Source: an uncultured Clostridium sp.
GTDB taxonomy: Bacteria > Bacillota > Clostridia > TANB77 > CAG-508
Reading direction: 5' to 3'
DNA: 64,000 nt
NCBI GenBank assembly: GCA_945865665.1
Contig: CAMBEE010000003.1
Location: 75,379 to 139,378, forward strand
Within the stretch, counting starts at the first letter, position 1; each line of letters starts with the position of its first letter. This document shows, in pieces, positions 20,396 to 28,939 of this stretch. The notes under the pieces were generated by a model. It did no database searches. It worked only from the letters and a program-made list of their open reading frames with translations, and was not told the DNA's origin. Both the position numbers and the translations under genes were made by a program.

Positions 20396-20437
20396 AATAA
20401 GTAGAGAGCATTTTAGGTAATTCCTAAAATGCTTTTT
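20396..20437. terminator. Bidirectional rho-independent terminator overlapping the pflA stop codon.
   Basis: AGCATTTTAGG-TAATT-CCTAAAATGCT hairpin with T/A tracts on both sides. Confidence 0.5.
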
Positions 20438-21150
20438 GCTCTTTTTATATCATCATCATTTGCAACTCGTACACCATCTAATTCATATTTTAGACCTAAC
20501 TTTTCCCATTTATATCTACCCATATCGTGATATGGAAGAACTTCAACTTTATCAACAGTATTTAAACTATCGATAAAATTTTTCAGTTTTAATAAATCTT
20601 GTTCATCATCAGTATAATCAGGAACAAGAACCTGACGAATCCACATATGAATATTGTTTTCACTTAAGTAACGTGCAAAATCAAGTCCCTTTTCATTGCC
20701 AAATCCAACTAAATTTTTGCATTTTTCTGAATCGATATGTTTTATATCTAGTAAAACTAAATCTGTTAAAGAAAGTAATTTTTTTATATCTGGTGTTAAA
20801 GCAACCATACCTGAAGTGTCAACACAAGTATGAATGTTTTCTTTTTTTAGTTTCTCAAATAATTCAATTAGAAATTTGACTTGTAATAAAGGTTCTCCAC
20901 CTGTTACAGTTACACCACCATTTGGATAAATATAATTTTTATATTTCATAATTTTTTCGAATATATCATCTAATGATTTATATTCTCCACCATTCATATT
21001 CCATGTATCTCTGTTATGACAGTATTTACATTGTAGGTGGCACCCTTGTAAAAATAGTACAAATCTTATTCCTGGGCCATCAACTGTTCCAAATGATTCT
21101 ATTGAATGTATTTTTGCGTAGTATTTTAAATCAATATCTTTTTTTTTCAT
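20413..21150 (-). CDS. pflA: Pyruvate formate-lyase activating enzyme (glycyl-radical activase, radical SAM).
   Basis: GCHLQCKYCHNRDTW radical-SAM CxxxCxxC motif. ATG at 21148-21150 (MKKKDIDLKYY) with RBS AGGAGA. The track extension to 21180 runs into the palindromic element. Confidence 0.85.
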   Translation of the reverse strand: MKKKDIDLKYYAKIHSIESFGTVDGPGIRFVLFLQGCHLQCKYCHNRDTWNMNGGEYKSLDDIFEKIMKYKNYIYPNGGVTVTGGEPLLQVKFLIELFEKLKKENIHTCVDTSGMVALTPDIKKLLSLTDLVLLDIKHIDSEKCKNLVGFGNEKGLDFARYLSENNIHMWIRQVLVPDYTDDEQDLLKLKNFIDSLNTVDKVEVLPYHDMGRYKWEKLGLKYELDGVRVANDDDIKRAKSILGIT

Positions 21151-21171
21151 ATTGTTTCTCCTATAAAGATT

Positions 21172-21329
21172 GTGAACCAATGGGGACGTTCTTAAAATGG
21201 TTGTGAACCAATGGGGACGTTCTTAGATTGGTTGAAAAATAAAATAAAAATAAAAAATTAAAATTTCAACCAATCTAAGAACGTCCCCATTGGTTCACAA
21301 CCATTTTAAGAACGTCCCCATTGGTTCAC
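21172..21329. repeat. 158-bp perfect palindromic element (copy A of the CCAATGGGGACGTTCTTA family) filling the pflB-pflA intercistronic gap.
   Basis: Each arm holds two direct copies of GTGAACCAATGGGGACGTTCTTA. Left arm 21172-21236 is the exact reverse complement of right arm 21265-21329. About 27-nt A/T loop. Confidence 0.8.
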
Positions 21330-21341
21330 CTTTTTGTTTTT

Positions 21342-23579
21342 TTAAATTCTTTCGTGAATTGTTCTGTTTACAACATCTAATTGTTGTTCTCTTGTTAATT
21401 TTGTAAAGTTAACAGCATATCCAGAAACACGAATTGTAAGTTGAGGATATTTTTCTGGATGGTCCATAGCATCTAGTAATAAGCTTCTATCAAAAACATT
21501 TACATTGATGTGGTGACCTGTTTGTTTGAAATATCCATCTAACATATTAACCATATTTGTAACTCTTTCGTCTTCGGTTTTTCCAAGAGTTCCAGGTGTT
21601 ATTGAAAATGTGTAAGAAATACCATCTTCAGCTTCTTCAAATGGAAGTTTTGCAATTGAGTTCATAACTGCTAATGCTCCATTTGTATCTCTACCATGTA
21701 GAGGGTTTGCTCCTGGTCCGAATGGGGCTCCGGCTCTTCTTCCATCGGGTGTATTTCCTGTGTTTTTACCATAAACAACATTTGATGTTATTGTTAAAAT
21801 TGATAATGTTTGTTTTGAATTTCTATAAGTTTGATGTTTTTGCAATTTTTGTAAAAATCTTTTTACAACACATACAGCAATTTCGTCAACTCTGTTGTCA
21901 TCATTACCAAATTTAGGAAAGTCTCCTTCAATTTCATAATCGACAGCTAGACCTGTTTCATCTCTTATAACTTTTACTTTTGCATATTTTATAGCTGATA
22001 ATGAGTCAGCAACTACTGATAATCCAGCGATTCCACATGCCATTGTTCTTAAAATTTCTCTATCATGTAAAGCCATTTCGATTGCTTCATATGAATATTT
22101 ATCATGCATATAGTGAATTGCATTTAAAGCTTTTATATAAATTTTTGCAACATATTCCATCATTTGGTCAAATTTTTCTAAAACTTCGTCAAAGTCTAAG
22201 TATTCAGAAGTTATTGGTGCATATTTTGGTGTAACTTGTTTTCCAGAGATTTCGTCTCTACCGCCATTTATAGCATATAACAATGTTTTTGCTAAGTTTG
22301 CTCTTGCACCAAAGAATTGCATTTGTTTACCTATTTTCATAGGTGAAACACAACATGCGATTCCGTAATCATCACCTAATGTTATTCTCATTAAATCGTC
22401 ATTTTCGTATTGAATTGAAGATGTTTTTATAGATAAATCTGTTGTATATCTTTTAAATCCTTCTGGTAATCTTGTTGACCATAATACTGTTAAGTTTGGT
22501 TCTGGGGCAGGACCTAGGTTTTCTAGTGTGTGTAAAATCCTAAATGAGTTTTTAGTAACTAATGTTCTACCATCAATTCCCATACCACCAATACTTTCAG
22601 TTACCCAAACTGGGTCTCCACTGAATAGTTCGTTATATTCTGGTGTTCTTAAAAATCTAACTAATCTTAATTTCATAACAAAGTGGTCCATTATTTCTTG
22701 AACTTGCTCCTCTGTTAATGTTCCATCTGCTAAATCTCTTTCAAAATAGATGTCTAAGAATGTAGATGTTCTACCGATACTCATTGCAGCACCATTTTGG
22801 TCTTTTATTGCTCCTAAATATCCAAAGTATAACCATTGAACAGCTTCTTTTGCATTTGAAGCAGGTTTTGATATGTCATACCCATATTTTGCAGCCATTA
22901 CCTTTAATGCTTGTAATGCGTCAATTTGTTCTTTCATTTCTTCTCTTTCACGAATAATTTCTTCTGTGAATTCGTTTGTATCTAAAACTTCTAATTCTTC
23001 TTTTTTAAGTGCTATTAAAACATCAACACCGTAAAGAGCAACTCTTCTGTAATCTCCTATAATTCTTCCACGACCATATCCGTCTGGTAGACCTGTTATT
23101 AAATGACTACTTCTTGCAGCTCTTATGTCTGGTGTATATACACTGAAAACACCGTCATTATGTGTTTTTCTTATTGTATGGAAAATTTTATCAACCTCTG
23201 GGTCAACTTCTCTTCCATAAGCCTCACAAGATTTTTCTACAATACGGATTCCTCCAAATGGCATAATTGCTCTTTTTAAAGGTGCATCTGTTTGTAGACC
23301 TACGATTTCTTCTAAGTCTTTGTCAATGTATCCTGCGTCATGTGCGGCTACTGTTGATACTGTTTTTGTGTCAATATCTAATACTCCACCTTTTGCTTCT
23401 TTTTCTTTTTTATATAGTTCTAATACTTCGTCCCATAGTTTTTTTGTTTTTTCTGTTGTTCCTTTTAAGAAACTTGAGTCTCCTTCATATGGTGTGTAGT
23501 TGTTTTGTATGAAGTCTCTTACATTTATTTCGTGTTGCCAGTCTCCTGGTTTGAATTTGTTCCATTGTTCAAATTCCAT
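21342..23579 (-). CDS. pflB: Pyruvate formate-lyase (formate C-acetyltransferase).
   Basis: 745 aa. C-terminal glycine-radical motif [11 protein letters not shown]. Active-site region ACCVSPM. Confidence 0.9.
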
Positions 23580-23713: not shown

Positions 23714-24097
23714 TTATTTGATGTTGCTTTTTTTAAAGCTCTCTTCAAGCTGAAGTTTTACTAAATCATTAGCAAGTCTACTAATAACTTTTTTATTATA
23801 GTCATTTAATTGTGAATAATCTTCTAAAAATTTATTATCAACTAAATCTGCAAAAGCGGAAGAACTTGTATCAATCAAACCACTAAAAAGAAAATCTGTA
23901 GAGATATTAAGTGCATTACACAAACTAACAATAGTAGTAGCACTACCAAAAGCTATACCACGTTCCAATTGGCTGATATATCTTGGTGATAAAGAAGTTT
24001 TTTCTGCAAGAACTTCCTGTGTGTACTTAGTTTTAGTTCTAGCTAATTTCAATTTTTTTCCAATATTTTTTCTTAAATTTTTTTCGATTTCTGTCAT
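23714..24097 (-). CDS. XRE-family helix-turn-helix transcriptional regulator.
   Basis: LKLARTKTKYTQEVLAEKTSLSPRYISQLERG HTH_3 pattern. Terminator hairpin GCAACA...TGTTGC at 23700-23735. Confidence 0.6.
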   Translation of the reverse strand: MTEIEKNLRKNIGKKLKLARTKTKYTQEVLAEKTSLSPRYISQLERGIAFGSATTIVSLCNALNISTDFLFSGLIDTSSSAFADLVDNKFLEDYSQLNDYNKKVISRLANDLVKLQLEESFKKSNIK

Positions 24098-24322
24098 AAA
24101 ATACCTCCAAATATATAAGAATTATTTAGTTTTGAGTATATCAATCATAATTAAATAATAACACGAAGTATTAGTACGAAAAGATTTAATTTGTAATACT
24201 GTTAATAGTATAAAAAATAATTTTAAATATTAGATAGAAAACAAAAAATATTGTAGAAAATTTAAAATATAAAAATATAATAAAAAAATTTATAAAAAAA
24301 TAAAAAAAATTTAAAAAAACTA

Positions 24323-24351
24323 TTGCAAAATAAATAAAGTTATATTACAAT
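24323..24351 (+). promoter_or_regulatory. Sigma-A type promoter of the mraZ (dcw) operon.
   Basis: TTGCAA(24323-28)-17 nt-TACAAT(24346-51). Confidence 0.45.
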
Positions 24352-24360
24352 TTACATTAA

Positions 24361-24407
24361 GTGGAGAAAAGTGGTACAAAGTGGTAGAAAAGTGAAAAGA
24401 GGTGAAG
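24361..24407 (+). promoter_or_regulatory. MraZ-box array: direct repeats GTGG[AT][AG] at exact 10-bp spacing just downstream of Pmra.
   Basis: GTGGAGaaaaGTGGTAcaaaGTGGTAgaaaaGTGAAAagagGTGAAG. MraZ autoregulatory operators in other bacteria are GTGG-containing direct repeats with 10-bp periodicity. Confidence 0.5.
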
Positions 24408-24411
24408 ACCA

Positions 24412-24837
24412 TTGTTAATGGGTGAATATGAGCATACTCTAGATGCCAAGGGCAGATTAATAATGCCTGCAAAATTAAGACAAGACATTGGAGATAAATT
24501 CGTTATAACTAAAGGATTAGACGGATGTTTATTTGCTTTTTCACAAGAAGAATGGTTGAACTTTGAAACAAAACTAAAATCACTACCACTATCAGATAGA
24601 AACGCAAGAAACTTTGTTAGATTTTTCTTATCAGGAGCAACTGAATGTGAGATTGATAAACAAGGTAGGTTTCTAATTCCAAATAATTTACGTTCAGCAG
24701 CAGAACTAGAAAAAGAAGCAGTAATAATTGGAGTAGGTACTAGGTTAGAAATATGGAATAAGGCAAATTGGGAAAAATGCGACGAGAATATATCTGTAGA
24801 TGAAATTGCTGAAAATATGACTATGCTTGGTATATAA
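24412..24837 (+). CDS. mraZ: Division/cell wall cluster transcriptional regulator MraZ.
   Basis: N-terminus (M)[22 protein letters not shown] with tandem DUF-MraZ halves. TTG start. Confidence 0.85.
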
Positions 24838-24857
24838 CTTGCAAAAGTTTATATAGA

Positions 24858-25172
24858 ATACAAAAGACAGAATTACTAGGGAAAAATATACAAAAGATAA
24901 AAAATACAAAAGATAAGTTTATAAAAGAAAATGTTACTAAAGATTGTTAAAGTAACTAAAGAAAAGATTACAAAAGATTAAATTACAAAAGTTAAAAGAA
25001 CAAAAGAAAATGGTACAAAAGATAAATGTACTTGAGAAAATATGTGCAAAAGAAAACTAATACTAATGATTTTACAAAAGATAAAAAATTACAGAAGAAT
25101 ATCAAAAAACATAAGTAAAAAATCCAAAGAAAAGATTACTAAGGATTTTATAAAAAATACCAAAAGAAAAAA
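24858..25172. repeat. Degenerate array of at least 10 copies of [TA]ACAAAAGA[TA]AA in the unusually long (~490-bp) mraZ-rsmH spacer.
   Basis: TACAAAAGACAG, TACAAAAGATAAAAAATACAAAAGATAAG, TTACAAAAGATTAAATTACAAAAGTTAAAAGAACAAAAGAAAATGGTACAAAAGATAAATG, TTACAAAAGATAAAAAATTACAGAAGAAT, TACCAAAAGAAAA. No ORF of 60 aa or longer. Confidence 0.5.
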
Positions 25173-25183
25173 CATATAATGCA

Positions 25184-25212
25184 AACAGCTGGTACTTTTA
25201 CCAGCTGTTTTG
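25184..25212 (+). terminator. Perfect 11-bp stem hairpin (terminator/attenuator-like) between mraZ and rsmH.
   Basis: AACAGCTGGTA-CTTT-TACCAGCTGTT followed by TTGCGTC. Preceded by TATAAT at 25175-80. Confidence 0.45.
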
Positions 25213-25330
25213 CGTCTATAAAAGAAAAATATGAGTATTTGACTATAAACTTATTAAAAAAGGTTTTAGAAAAAGCGTATATAAAATTTTATAGAATATG
25301 TAATATAAAAAACTTTTAAGAGGTGAAAAA

Positions 25331-26260
25331 TTGGAATTTAAGCATAAACCTGTAATGTTAGAAGAATGCATATGTGGGTTGAATATTAAACCTGATGGAA
25401 TATATGTTGATGGAACTCTTGGAGGAGCAGGACATAGCAGAGAAATAGTAAAAAGATTATCAAAAGAAGGATTACTAATTGGAATAGATAGAGATGAAGA
25501 CGCTCTAAAAGCAGCAAAAGAAAACTTAAAGGAATTCCGAAATGTAAAATTCGTTAAAGATAATCATGACAATATAAAGCAAATTTTAGAAGACATCGGA
25601 ATAGAAAAAGTTGATGGAATCTTACTTGATTTAGGTGTTTCTTCATATCAATTAGATGAAAGAAATAGAGGATTCAGTTATCTAGGTGAAAATGAACTTG
25701 ATATGAGGATGGATAAAAATCAGGAATTATCTGCGAAAAATGTTGTAAATGAGTATCCAGAAGAAAAACTTGCAAATATCATATATGAATATGGTGAAGA
25801 AAGATTTTCAAGACAAATAGCCAGAAACATATGCGAATATCGAAAAGAACATTTAATTAATACTACAAAACAATTAGTAGAAATAATAGAAAAATCAATT
25901 CCAAAATCAAAACAAAATGATGGACATCCTGCAAAAAGGACATTCCAGGCAATTAGAATTGAAGTAAATGACGAAATTAAACCATTATATAATACAGTAA
26001 AAGATTGCATAGATTGCTTAAAACCACAAGGAAGATTATGTATTATAACATTTCATTCTTTGGAAGATAGAGCTGTTAAAAATGCAATGTTAGATGCAAA
26101 AGGGAAATGCACTTGTCCACCTGATTTACCATATTGTGTATGTGGTGCAAAATCACTTGGAAAAGTAATTACTAGAAAACCAATTGTAGCTACGAAAGAA
26201 GAACAGGAAGAAAATAGCAGAAGCAAAAGTGCAAAACTTAGAATTTTTGAAAAGGAATAA
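25331..26260 (+). CDS. rsmH: 16S rRNA (cytosine1402-N4)-methyltransferase RsmH (MraW).
   Basis: [12 protein letters not shown]...[15 protein letters not shown]-binding motif. TTG start with RBS AAGAGGTG. Confidence 0.85.
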
Positions 26261-26347: not shown

Positions 26348-26857
26348 ATGGCACAAGCAAAGTATCAATATGGAACTAGCCCTAGAAAGTTAGAACCAGA
26401 TTATACTAGAAAAACAAGTCAAAGACCAAAAAGAAAACCATTAAAAGTTGTCAAAGAATTGCCTAGACAACAAATACAAATTTCTAAAGAACAACGTAAA
26501 AAACAAATGAAAACAACAGTTACAGTTGTTGGGTTATTTTTGTTGTTATTAACCATAAGTTGTAGAAACTCTCAAATAGATAGACAATTTGACCAAATTC
26601 AAGATCAAAAGAAACAGCTGGCTGCTTTGCAAAAAGAGAATGAGCAATTAAAAGTTAGTATTGAAAATAGTGTAAATATTAGCAATATTGAAAAGGTTGC
26701 TAAAGAAGAATTGGGAATGCAAAAATTAAGTGGTAAACAAACAGTATATGTTACTTTACCTAAAAAAGATTATGTTGAATCTGCTTCAGAAAAAGTTGTT
26801 ATTGAAAAAAGTAAAACTTGGTGGGAAAAAGTTGCAGATAAAATTTTGAATTTTTGA
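26348..26857 (+). CDS. ftsL: Cell division protein FtsL-like (bitopic, coiled-coil).
   Basis: Position in dcw cluster. Single TM TTVTVVGLFLLLLTI followed by coiled-coil QKKQLAALQKENEQLKV. Confidence 0.55.
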   Translation: MAQAKYQYGTSPRKLEPDYTRKTSQRPKRKPLKVVKELPRQQIQISKEQRKKQMKTTVTVVGLFLLLLTISCRNSQIDRQFDQIQDQKKQLAALQKENEQLKVSIENSVNISNIEKVAKEELGMQKLSGKQTVYVTLPKKDYVESASEKVVIEKSKTWWEKVADKILNF

Positions 26858-26947: not shown

Positions 26948-28939
26948 ATGGTGAAAATAAATTTATCAACAAAAAAGAGGATGAGAGTAACACTGTTTAT
27001 AATTTTTTTAATAATCGTATTGTTAATTGGAAGATTAGGATATGTGCAATTAATAGATGGAAAGAAATTATCAAAATTGGCATATGAACAACAAACACTA
27101 GATAGAACAATAAATCCAAAGAGAGGAACTATTTATGATACAACAGGGCAGGTTCTGGCACAAAGTAGTACTGTTGAAACAGTTACTGTGAATCCTGGAA
27201 ATATTGATAAGAATGATAAAGAAAAGGTAGCAAAAAAACTTTCTGATATTTTTGAGTTAGATTATGAAAAAACTTTGAAGAAAGTTTCTAAGAGAAGTTC
27301 TATAGAAACTATTGCTAAAAAGGTTGATAAGGAAAAGACTGATGAACTTAGAAAATGGATGGAAGAGGAGAATATAACAACAGGAATAAACATTGATGAA
27401 GATACAAAAAGATATTATCCTAATAATAATTTAGCATCTCAAATTATAGGATTTTGTGGAAGTGATAATCAAGGACTTGACGGAATTGAAGCAAAATATG
27501 ATAATGTGCTTTCTGGAACAAAAGGTGCAATTAAGAGACATACTGATGCAAAAGGTGGAGAAATAGGTGAAGAGGGTGAAACATATGTTGCAGCTAAAAA
27601 TGGAAATGATGTTGTTCTTACGATAGATATGAATATTCAATCAATTGTAGAAAAATATTTGAAAGAAGCATGTATTGACAATAAGTGTACAGATGGTGGA
27701 AATATTGTTGTTATGAATCCACAAAATGGTGATATTTTAGCGATGGCAACATATCCGAATTATAATTTAAATGAACCATATGCAGCATATACAGATGAAC
27801 TAAAAGGTATCTGGGATACAACAGATCAGGCAGAAAAGACTAAAAGCTTACAGGCTGTTTGGAGAAATAGAGCAATTACAGATACATATGAGCCTGGTTC
27901 AACGTTTAAAACTATTACTGCATCTGCATCTCTTGAGGAGGGGCTAGTTACAGATATAGATAAACAGGGACAATTCTGTTGTACAGGTGGAATTGAAGTT
28001 GCGGGAGTAAGAATAAAATGTTGGAGATATTATAGACCACATGGAGCAGAAAGTTTGAGACAGGCATTAATGAATTCGTGTAACCCAATTTTTATAGGTC
28101 TAGGTCAAAAAATGGGTGTTCACACGTATTATAGCTATTTACAGAAATTTGGTTTATTAGAGAAAACTGGAATTGATTTGCCAGGTGAGGCAGGAAGTAT
28201 ATTTTTAGCTGAAAATAAGGCTGGTCCTGTTGAATTAGCAACAATAAGCTTTGGCCAAAGATTTGAAATTACTCCAATTCAGTTGGTAACAGCTGTTTCT
28301 TCAATAGCAAATGGTGGAAATTTAGTCCAACCAAGAGTGGTTAAATCAATAATTGATAGTGAAACAGGTGAAAGAACAGATATTGAAACAAAAGTTAAAT
28401 CGCAGACAATTTCTAAAGAAACATCGGAAAAAGTTTTAAGTATGATGGAATCTGTTGTTTCAGAAGGTACTGGTAAAAATGCTAAAGTTGCAGGTTATAG
28501 AATTGGTGGAAAGACTGGAACTTCTGAAGATGGTGTAAATACTAATAAATATGTTACTTCATTTTTAGGTGTTGCACCTATTGAAAATCCACAAGTGGTT
28601 TTGCTGGTTACTTTGTACAATCCGACTGGTGAGGGAGGACATCAAGGTGGTGGTGTTGCAGCACCTGTTGGAGGTCAAGTTTTTAGTGAGATTTTGCCTT
28701 ATTTGGAAGTATCACAGGAAAATCAAGATGAGGTTGAACAGGTTGAACAAATTCAGGTTCCTAATGTTGAAGGATTAAGTATTAAAGAGGCGGAAAAAGC
28801 TACTAAAGAAGTGGGGTTGGAAATTAGTGTTCAAAATGATTCAGAAGAACTTGATAGGGAAAATACGGTTATTAAGGAACAGTCTCCAAGAGAAGGTGTT
28901 AGTGTTAATAAAGGTAGTAAAATTTTTGTGGAATTTTAA
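26948..28939 (+). CDS. Class B penicillin-binding protein transpeptidase (FtsI/SpoVD family) with C-terminal PASTA domain.
   Basis: STFK active-site serine motif (GSTFKTIT), SCN (MNSCNP), KTGT (GGKTGT). C-terminal PASTA VPNVEGLSIKEAEKATKEVGLEISV. Confidence 0.8.
   Translation: MVKINLSTKKRMRVTLFIIFLIIVLLIGRLGYVQLIDGKKLSKLAYEQQTLDRTINPKRGTIYDTTGQVLAQSSTVETVTVNPGNIDKNDKEKVAKKLSDIFELDYEKTLKKVSKRSSIETIAKKVDKEKTDELRKWMEEENITTGINIDEDTKRYYPNNNLASQIIGFCGSDNQGLDGIEAKYDNVLSGTKGAIKRHTDAKGGEIGEEGETYVAAKNGNDVVLTIDMNIQSIVEKYLKEACIDNKCTDGGNIVVMNPQNGDILAMATYPNYNLNEPYAAYTDELKGIWDTTDQAEKTKSLQAVWRNRAITDTYEPGSTFKTITASASLEEGLVTDIDKQGQFCCTGGIEVAGVRIKCWRYYRPHGAESLRQALMNSCNPIFIGLGQKMGVHTYYSYLQKFGLLEKTGIDLPGEAGSIFLAENKAGPVELATISFGQRFEITPIQLVTAVSSIANGGNLVQPRVVKSIIDSETGERTDIETKVKSQTISKETSEKVLSMMESVVSEGTGKNAKVAGYRIGGKTGTSEDGVNTNKYVTSFLGVAPIENPQVVLLVTLYNPTGEGGHQGGGVAAPVGGQVFSEILPYLEVSQENQDEVEQVEQIQVPNVEGLSIKEAEKATKEVGLEISVQNDSEELDRENTVIKEQSPREGVSVNKGSKIFVEF

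Follow-up and report, generated by a model that had tools for sequence, protein, structure and literature searches.

Several bacterial RNAs carry many copies of one short motif that is read by a protein: GGA in CsrB and RsmZ (CsrA), AAnAAnAA in CrcZ (Hfq/Crc), 11 (G/U)AG in the trp leader (TRAP) and UAG in the hut leader (HutP). Two further systems resemble the present one in position or in operon layout. In Actinobacteria a small hairpin, the mraW RNA motif (Rfam RF01746), directly precedes mraW/rsmH and is a candidate for an RNA regulator in cis. In the cggR-gapA operon of Bacillus subtilis the repressor gene comes first; cleavage in the spacer and a stem-loop that stabilises the downstream message uncouple the repressor from the structural genes. 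Finally, UpsM is the extended 5' leader of the dcw genes, which serve division and the cell wall, in Rhodobacteraceae: it ends in a Rho-independent terminator with partial readthrough and is processed by RNase (PMC5089854, PMC8266604). Here we describe an apparently new element at a classic junction of the same operon, the spacer between mraZ and rsmH, in a stretch of 64,000 nucleotides from an uncultured Clostridium sp. (contig CAMBEE010000003.1, positions 75,379 to 139,378 of the forward strand; below, the window).

Three parts make up the spacer (24838-25330, 493 nt): a weak hairpin of A/U pairs spanning the stop codon of mraZ (hairpin 1), an unstructured A-rich repeat array, and a strong hairpin upstream of the rsmH ribosome-binding site (hairpin 2). 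We give nearly even chances to the view that it is a conserved non-coding element acting in the sense-strand RNA of the dcw operon transcript. The kind of element is known, a repeat-motif RNA platform with a hairpin as output, and its motif and location are new.

Like CsrB/RsmZ, CrcZ and the trp and hut leaders, the spacer holds many copies of one short single-stranded motif on one RNA; in the trp and hut leaders the motif array lies directly upstream of a terminator hairpin in an operon leader, and here it precedes hairpin 2. It differs from all of these in its longer 8-mer, ACAAAAGA, its 15-nt period and its location between mraZ and rsmH, and no antiterminator is seen. UpsM is also a non-coding RNA segment of the dcw operon transcript and a precedent for gating of these genes at the RNA level. 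However, it lies upstream of mraZ, is structured over about 200 nt and lacks a repeat array; further, it belongs to Alphaproteobacteria, depends on Hfq and RNase E, and has no sequence similarity to the spacer element. With cggR-gapA the locus shares a repressor gene at the head of the operon, and by analogy a stem-loop in the spacer could stabilise the downstream message; there is no repeat array in cggR-gapA, and cleavage is putative here.

The mraW RNA motif shares the position before rsmH, but no Rfam match to it is found here, even at E-values up to 10. At this level the best matches in 24300-25400 are chance-level eukaryotic or viral families, well below threshold, and when the whole window is searched against Rfam 15 at gathering thresholds the sole hit is a tRNA (57519-57590).

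The repeat unit is (T)ACAAAAGA(T/A)AAA, present in the spacer as 12 strong and about 6 weak copies, all on the forward strand. Seven exact copies of ACAAAAGA lie within 24860-25081, versus 13 in the remaining 63.6 kb of the window, and all five window copies of TACAAAAGAT are inside the spacer. Using a weight matrix of 14 nt, trained on the relatives of the locus without the window, we find 12 matches of at least 9 bits in 24860-25167 where 0.41 are expected (Poisson P 3e-14), and about 18 matches in the spacer at a threshold of 6 bits. The unusually long spacer filled with a repeat array, as described in the original prediction, is thus borne out. No second stretch of 300 nt in the window contains more than four matches. 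The second-densest region, at about 50350-50650 with 4 matches per 300 nt on the forward strand, lies inside open reading frames (ORFs); these matches are probably lysine-rich coding sequence.

The spacing of the motif had been called irregular, but a 15-nt period underlies it: Tandem Repeats Finder describes the array as a degenerate repeat of 9.5 copies with this period, and the distances between units in 81 species, given below, agree. A makes up 59% of the array, T 21%, G 12% and C 8%, and in a single-sequence fold of the window the array is only weakly paired. Two parts can be distinguished. In the variable part (24858-25072, forward strand) strong units start at 24860, 24890, 24906, 24955, 24970, 24985, 25000, 25015 and 25046. 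The constant part (25073-25182, forward strand) consists of fixed, individually conserved unit variants: ACAAAAGA at 25074, ACAGAAGA at 25091, ACATAAGT at 25109 and TCCAAAGA at 25123. The last unit, ACCAAAAGA (25159-25167, forward strand), followed by AACATA, is near-universal and can be aligned in 74 species, where its form is ACCAAAAGA(A/T)AAA..AACATA, about 22-26 nt before hairpin 2. A small hairpin, AAAATCC...GGATTTT at 25116-25152, was dropped since it is not conserved beyond the subclade of the window.

The comparison is based on 80 related loci, found by a scan with RsmH and limited to one genome per species; counts out of 81 species include the window. The loci come without exception from uncultured gut Clostridia, among them Clostridium sp. 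CAG:389, CAG:440, 26_22 and 28_17, with RsmH identities of 78-99%. The RsmH homologue search gave at least 8000 matches at E-values up to 1e-20, and the best 120 of these are all at least 87% identical. The DNA covered is 64 kb of the source genome and about 6.5 kb per relative. Individual loci are referred to by L numbers.

The length noted for the window recurs throughout this group: the mraZ-rsmH spacer is 207-680 nt long in 80/80 relatives and contains the same motif in all of them. Each relative has 3-10 exact copies of ACAAAAG on the forward strand and none on the reverse strand. In the 27.3 kb of spacers there are 853 weight-matrix matches on the forward strand and a single one on the reverse strand. 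This corresponds to 31 per kb, compared with 1.1 per kb (sense) and 0.11 per kb (antisense) in 488 kb of flanking DNA. A motif scattered at random through AT-rich sequence, which the original prediction named as the outcome that would speak against it, is therefore not what is found: in 80/80 relatives the motif is enriched at this locus, each time on the sense strand, and is about 28 times as dense as in the flanks. Nor does base composition reproduce the counts, as ACAAAAG occurs 579 times in the 81 spacers versus 16 +/- 4 times in composition-preserving shuffles.

The 8-nt core ACAAAAGA is present 8-18 times per array. Its C and G are 94-98% fixed, as measured on 972 sites that were each chosen to lie within one mismatch of the core, so that these values are biased upward. 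The G at +6 and the A at +7 are 92-98% fixed, and a T precedes ACA in about 60-67% of the units. The start-to-start distances between units in the 81 species peak at 15 nt (153 cases), followed by 22-23, 29-31, 37 and 45 nt. These are roughly multiples of 7.5 nt, which fits a flexible strand better than phased duplex DNA.

The array is under purifying selection. Its last 110 nt together with hairpin 2 have an identity to the window of 0.96 in L007 and L009, compared with 0.75 for the fourfold-degenerate sites of mraZ and rsmH; the corresponding values are 0.99 and 0.88 in L006, and about 0.81 and 0.60-0.73 in L010-L014. Within this block the constant part of the array is nearly invariant in L001-L007. 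In the 5' part of the array the rate of change is close to that of fourfold sites, and there are many gaps of unit size: relatives gain or lose whole units, yet the motif is kept. No lineage-specific drift is seen in the consensus 8-mer, which all 81 species-level lineages share in identical form, although some of these are near saturation at fourfold sites. Among genomes with 97-99% fourfold identity no unit indels are seen, which argues that the array is not a hypermutable contingency tract.

Metagenome and viral contigs were scanned for three spaced motifs, and among the matches listed almost all are unrelated perfect tandem repeats. The informative ones among them are L135 and L151, which represent the same mraZ-rsmH locus, and L158. 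These scans do not show whether the array is exclusive to this locus. In L158 (contig OLSB01002071.1, about 8480-8760, reverse strand) a similar irregular array with the units ACAAAAGA, TACCAAAGAT, TACTAAAGAT and TACATATGAT lies outside the mraZ context, downstream of a 376-aa HEXXH protein and an 81-aa helix-turn-helix (HTH) gene, and it ends in a terminator-like hairpin. The neighbouring genes have no counterpart in the window or in the related loci. The L158 array is a hint of further loci with this motif in related low-GC bacteria.

Hairpin 1, TATATAACTT-GCAA-AAG(T)TTATATA (24831-24855, forward strand), spans the mraZ stop codon. It is an A/U stem of 10 bp with a 1-nt bulge and a GNAA-type loop, and is found in 81/81 species with invariant arms, the bulge being T or C and the loop GCAA, GAAA, GTAA, TCAA or longer. 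The hairpin is weak, with a median folding free energy of -3.8 kcal/mol and a z-score of -3.4. One locus in which mraZ ends earlier has it too, and constraint on the coding sequence is therefore not a sufficient explanation.

Hairpin 2, AAACAGCTGGTA-CTTT-TACCAGCTGTTT (25183-25210, forward strand), is a perfect 12-bp inverted repeat and unique in the window, in agreement with the perfect hairpin described earlier. Across the clade its stem is CAGCTGGTA/TACCAGCTG, which 74/81 species have; the loop measures 3 to about 27 nt. In a 31-sequence alignment 97.7% of the cells are paired, and 12 cells show a double compensatory change, versus 3.5 +/- 1.5 in shuffles, none of 500 shuffles reaching 12. 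Among 42 distinct arm pairs, the internal stem positions contain 22 G.U pairs and no A.C, which indicates that it is the sense strand that folds. In the 60 nt that precede hairpin 2, no structure is conserved according to RNAalifold.

The distance from hairpin 2 to the rsmH start codon is 28-36 nt in most species, which leaves no space for a promoter there. The window and some relatives are longer at this point. In the window a lineage-specific extra sequence of 106 nt (25212-25317, forward strand), absent from most relatives, separates hairpin 2 from the rsmH ribosome-binding site, AAGAGGTG (25318-25325, forward strand); a promoter scan finds no promoter-like site on its forward strand. L004 and L005 have about 100-250 nt extra between hairpin 2 and rsmH, including a second long hairpin with an A/T-rich stem of 16-19 bp, perfect in L005 (TATATATTAGAAAAGTT...AACTTTTCTAATATATA).

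Seven species lack hairpin 2, and they form one subclade (L022, L029, L034, L041, L042, L045 and L066). Here the array ends in two UGUACAAAAG units, containing the self-complementary UGUACA, which are followed by U5-7 and then by the ribosome-binding site. This end may form a replacement hairpin.

An attenuator between mraZ and the downstream dcw genes was one of the functions proposed for the spacer, and the evidence for it is divided. Hairpin 2 does stand before the rsmH ribosome-binding site, and in 31/74 species it is followed by at least four T; in 23/74 species there is only 0-1 T, so it is not a universal intrinsic terminator. In the window itself TTTT is found at 25208-25211, three of these T lying within the 3' arm and the fourth after it, followed by GCGTCT, and a scan for intrinsic terminators (a G+C-rich stem-loop followed by at least five T in eight) calls none at this hairpin. 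In L013, L017 and L030 the U-run stands directly before the ribosome-binding site, and rsmH, with any dcw genes downstream that lack their own promoter, would need readthrough there, which speaks for an attenuator-like role. A candidate antiterminator, UACCA of the last unit with UGGUA of the 5' arm of hairpin 2 (5 bp), was rejected as the match is lost in the CCCAAAAG group.

The array-bearing transcript is likely to start at the operon promoter upstream of mraZ, TTGCAA-17-TACAAT (24323-24351, forward strand), identified by a promoter scan. Behind it lies the MraZ operator, which consists of three GTGG boxes and a single GTGA with a period of 10/10/11 nt (24359-24394, forward strand) and which a tandem-repeat scan detects with period 10. 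Three to five GTG[GT] boxes are found upstream of mraZ in 78/78 loci with enough sequence, in agreement with the described operator of at least three GTG(G/T) direct-repeat boxes with 6-nt spacers and a 10-bp period (PMC12957436). Next come mraZ (24412-24837, forward strand; Pfam MraZ PF02381, E 2.7e-42), the spacer, and rsmH (25331-26260, forward strand, with a TTG start at 25331; Methyltransf_5, E 7e-122). An FtsL/DivIC-like gene follows at 26348-26857 (forward strand; ORF list and Pfam). For a 663-aa ORF at 26948-28939 (forward strand), outside the Pfam scan, translation and place in the cluster suggest a penicillin-binding protein.

An internal promoter at the TATAAT at 25175, where transcription had been suggested to reinitiate, is not supported: the hexamer is limited to the subclade of the window, it is not part of a -35/-10 pair, and no such pair is conserved. 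The absence of a promoter, the closeness of hairpin 2 to rsmH and the seven species in which the array abuts the ribosome-binding site together imply that the array is transcribed into the rsmH leader.

It is on these properties that the view of the spacer as a cis-acting RNA module is based: it is transcribed, weakly paired, strictly sense-oriented and enclosed by two hairpins whose sense strand folds. What is observed is that the spacer is conserved, strand-specific and under purifying selection and has the two hairpins; it contains no conserved ORF, internal promoter or MraZ box. The identity of the reader and of the output we infer: a protein that acts on RNA would read the motif, and the output would concern rsmH and the dcw genes after it, at the level of readthrough, stability or translation. 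In the likeliest mechanism the array would serve as a multivalent platform for a single-strand-specific RNA-binding protein or an endoribonuclease. Occupancy or cleavage of the platform would set the share of the transcript from the MraZ-repressed promoter that continues through hairpin 2, or survives past it, into rsmH, ftsL and the penicillin-binding protein gene; the ratio of MraZ to the products of the downstream genes would be set in this way. Hairpin 2 would be the output device, terminator-like in many species, and in those without a U-run a 5' protective or translation-modulating stem.

A more specific version we hold only tentatively: the spacer would belong to a new class of regulatory RNA inside operons of abundant uncultured gut Clostridia. 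Its 8-18 ACAAAAGA sites would be read by an oligomeric single-strand RNA-binding protein; via hairpin 2 the array would couple the MraZ-controlled promoter to the essential division and cell-wall genes, and it might act as a sponge in trans as well. If so, the array in L158 hints at a wider regulon of motif and reader.

Several observations weigh against an RNA module of this kind. With the U-run missing in 23/74 species, one output mechanism cannot fit all. When the alignment is read by eye there is no conserved antiterminator pairing with hairpin 2. No binding partner was found: MazF, Hfq, CsrA and KhpA have no tblastn match in the 64-kb window, a weak test in a small part of the genome. Further, strand-specific direct repeats would also suit an oriented DNA-binding array, and folded single-stranded DNA also tolerates G.T wobble.

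Nor is the array one of the known repeat-motif types. A CsrA sponge of the CsrB/RsmZ type, in which numerous GGA motifs stand mainly in hairpin loops, was rejected because GGA occurs 101 times in the 81 spacers versus 237 +/- 13 in shuffles. A CrcZ-type Hfq/Crc sponge fails in the same way, with 364 AA.AA.AA versus 730 +/- 31, and the pattern is lacking in ACAAAAGA. For a TRAP/HutP-type leader, whose triplets stand 2-4 nt apart and overlap an antiterminator or terminator, [GT]AG is too rare (389 versus 679 +/- 23), the period is 15 nt, and there is no conserved alternative pairing. All three motifs are thus about twofold depleted in the spacers.

Unlikely, in our judgement, is a role in trans, in which a stable RNA from hairpin 1 to hairpin 2 (about 200-380 nt), freed by termination at hairpin 2 and/or by processing, would titrate a global RNA-binding protein with its 8-18 motif copies, by analogy with the titration of CsrA by CsrB/RsmZ and of Hfq/Crc by CrcZ. 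The level of such a sponge would depend on the MraZ-controlled promoter. An unstructured RNA that has a hairpin at each end and one short motif in many copies is what a sponge would look like, a terminator-like U-run of at least four follows hairpin 2 in 31/74 species, and the L158 array ends in a terminator in another gene context. However, there is a single array in the window and none in the 488 kb of flanks, the U-run is missing in 23/74 species and hairpin 2 itself in seven, and hairpin 1, at -3.8 kcal/mol, is weak. The evidence fits action in cis as well as action in trans.

It is also improbable that the spacer is a processing or stability module without a dedicated binder. In this case the array would be a set of endoribonuclease sites, and after the cut hairpin 1 would guard the 3' end of the mraZ message and hairpin 2 the 5' end of the rsmH-dcw message, so that the half-lives of the two become uncoupled, as in cggR-gapA. 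The hairpins are exactly at both gene boundaries, as such a module would predict. One candidate nuclease is RNase Y, whose preference is for A/U-rich single strands and which cleaves after G; in the unit, the invariant G with A/U behind it would suit this enzyme. A general RNase, however, needs no precise 8-mer repeated 8-18 times.

The other candidate is a MazF-type toxin. U^ACAAA is the site cleaved by the MazF of Ca. Desulforudis audaxviator, which belongs to the Clostridia, the seventh base being irrelevant (PMC8634880), and TACAAA is found 444 times in the spacers versus 55 expected. A MazF-type nuclease is in this respect one lead to the reader of the motif, but as judged from the sequences the conservation does not fit the specificity of the enzyme. 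The T of this hexamer precedes ACA in only about 60-67% of the units, while the most constrained bases, G+6 and A+7, fall outside the published site. The search of the window for mazF, a weak test in 64 kb, gave no match.

We find it quite unlikely that the array works at the DNA level, as duplex sites for a regulator that forms a roadblock between mraZ and rsmH, or for a local nucleoid organiser. Direct repeats in a single orientation are typical of some regulators, and MraZ itself binds direct repeats in the same operon, where an oligomer reads several of them. Further, an XRE-type HTH gene of 127 aa, divergent from mraZ (23714-24097, reverse strand), is a candidate for the binder; in 60 of the roughly 68 loci that reach far enough upstream, a gene of this type lies beside mraZ, and its product may be a locus-specific regulator. 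XRE proteins, however, normally bind palindromes.

The array is not a MraZ operator: it lacks GTGG boxes and has a period of 15 nt rather than 10, the true operator is the separate one at 24359-24394, and GTG[GT] occurs at 2.4 per kb in the spacers, mostly in the rsmH ribosome-binding site. Further, the unit spacings of 15, 22-23, 30 and 37 nt are not multiples of a helical turn, inverted-repeat loops of 3 to about 27 nt suit folding and not a dimer site, the G.U pairs of hairpin 2, without any A.C, suggest that it is the sense strand that folds, and there is no conserved promoter on which such an array could act. Of the protein-binding array that the original prediction considered, the multi-site binding is thus favoured, although on RNA; a nucleoid or SMC site on DNA is disfavoured by spacing that is not helically phased.

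Very unlikely is a neutral or nearly neutral minisatellite, in which selection would act on a long A-rich unstructured linker alone and the motif would be an echo of duplication. The 15-nt tandem structure, the indels of whole units between relatives and the fourfold-like rate in the 5' part of the array would all be expected from it. A decayed minisatellite, as had been suggested, would not keep the same consensus 8-mer without drift in 81 lineages, some near fourfold saturation, nor a 3' block that is conserved above fourfold-degenerate sites. The lack of unit indels at 97-99% fourfold identity and the strand asymmetry of 853 to 1 speak against it as well.

A small lysine-rich protein or repeat peptide encoded in the spacer can be dismissed: the window has the 45-aa ORF reported earlier as the longest, and another of 46 aa (25179-25319), some relatives have ORFs of up to 71 aa, and the 15-nt period is divisible by 3, but the median longest ORF is 25 aa, there is no Pfam match, frames are not conserved, unit spacings of 16, 18, 22 and 23 nt disrupt the frame, and in L001-L003, which are 98-99% identical to the window in the block, an indel of 1 nt puts the ORF out of frame relative to the window.

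A few features of the surrounding DNA should be mentioned. Between the HTH gene and the mraZ promoter, 24219-24323 is extremely A/T-rich and multiply periodic (periods 7-20, Tandem Repeats Finder). The forward strand of the window contains 41.8% A and 30.4% T, and 50 of its 62 ORFs of at least 90 aa are on this strand, which is consistent with a leading-strand, purine-loaded region. On the other side of the HTH gene, a 745-aa ORF (21342-23579, reverse strand) ends in ...RVSGYAVNF, a glycyl-radical (pyruvate formate-lyase-like) signature by its translation alone, and on the same basis the adjoining 255-aa ORF (20413-21180, reverse strand) may encode an activating enzyme.

In this clade of uncultured gut Clostridia a selected, repeat-based RNA element has been inserted exactly at the mraZ-rsmH junction. 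The element is long, sharply delimited and available in many natural variants, and this makes it suited to direct testing. A dedicated reader, if the motif has one, would form with it a new pair in RNA-protein recognition. Should the element gate readthrough or stability, cell division in these bacteria would have a new control point.

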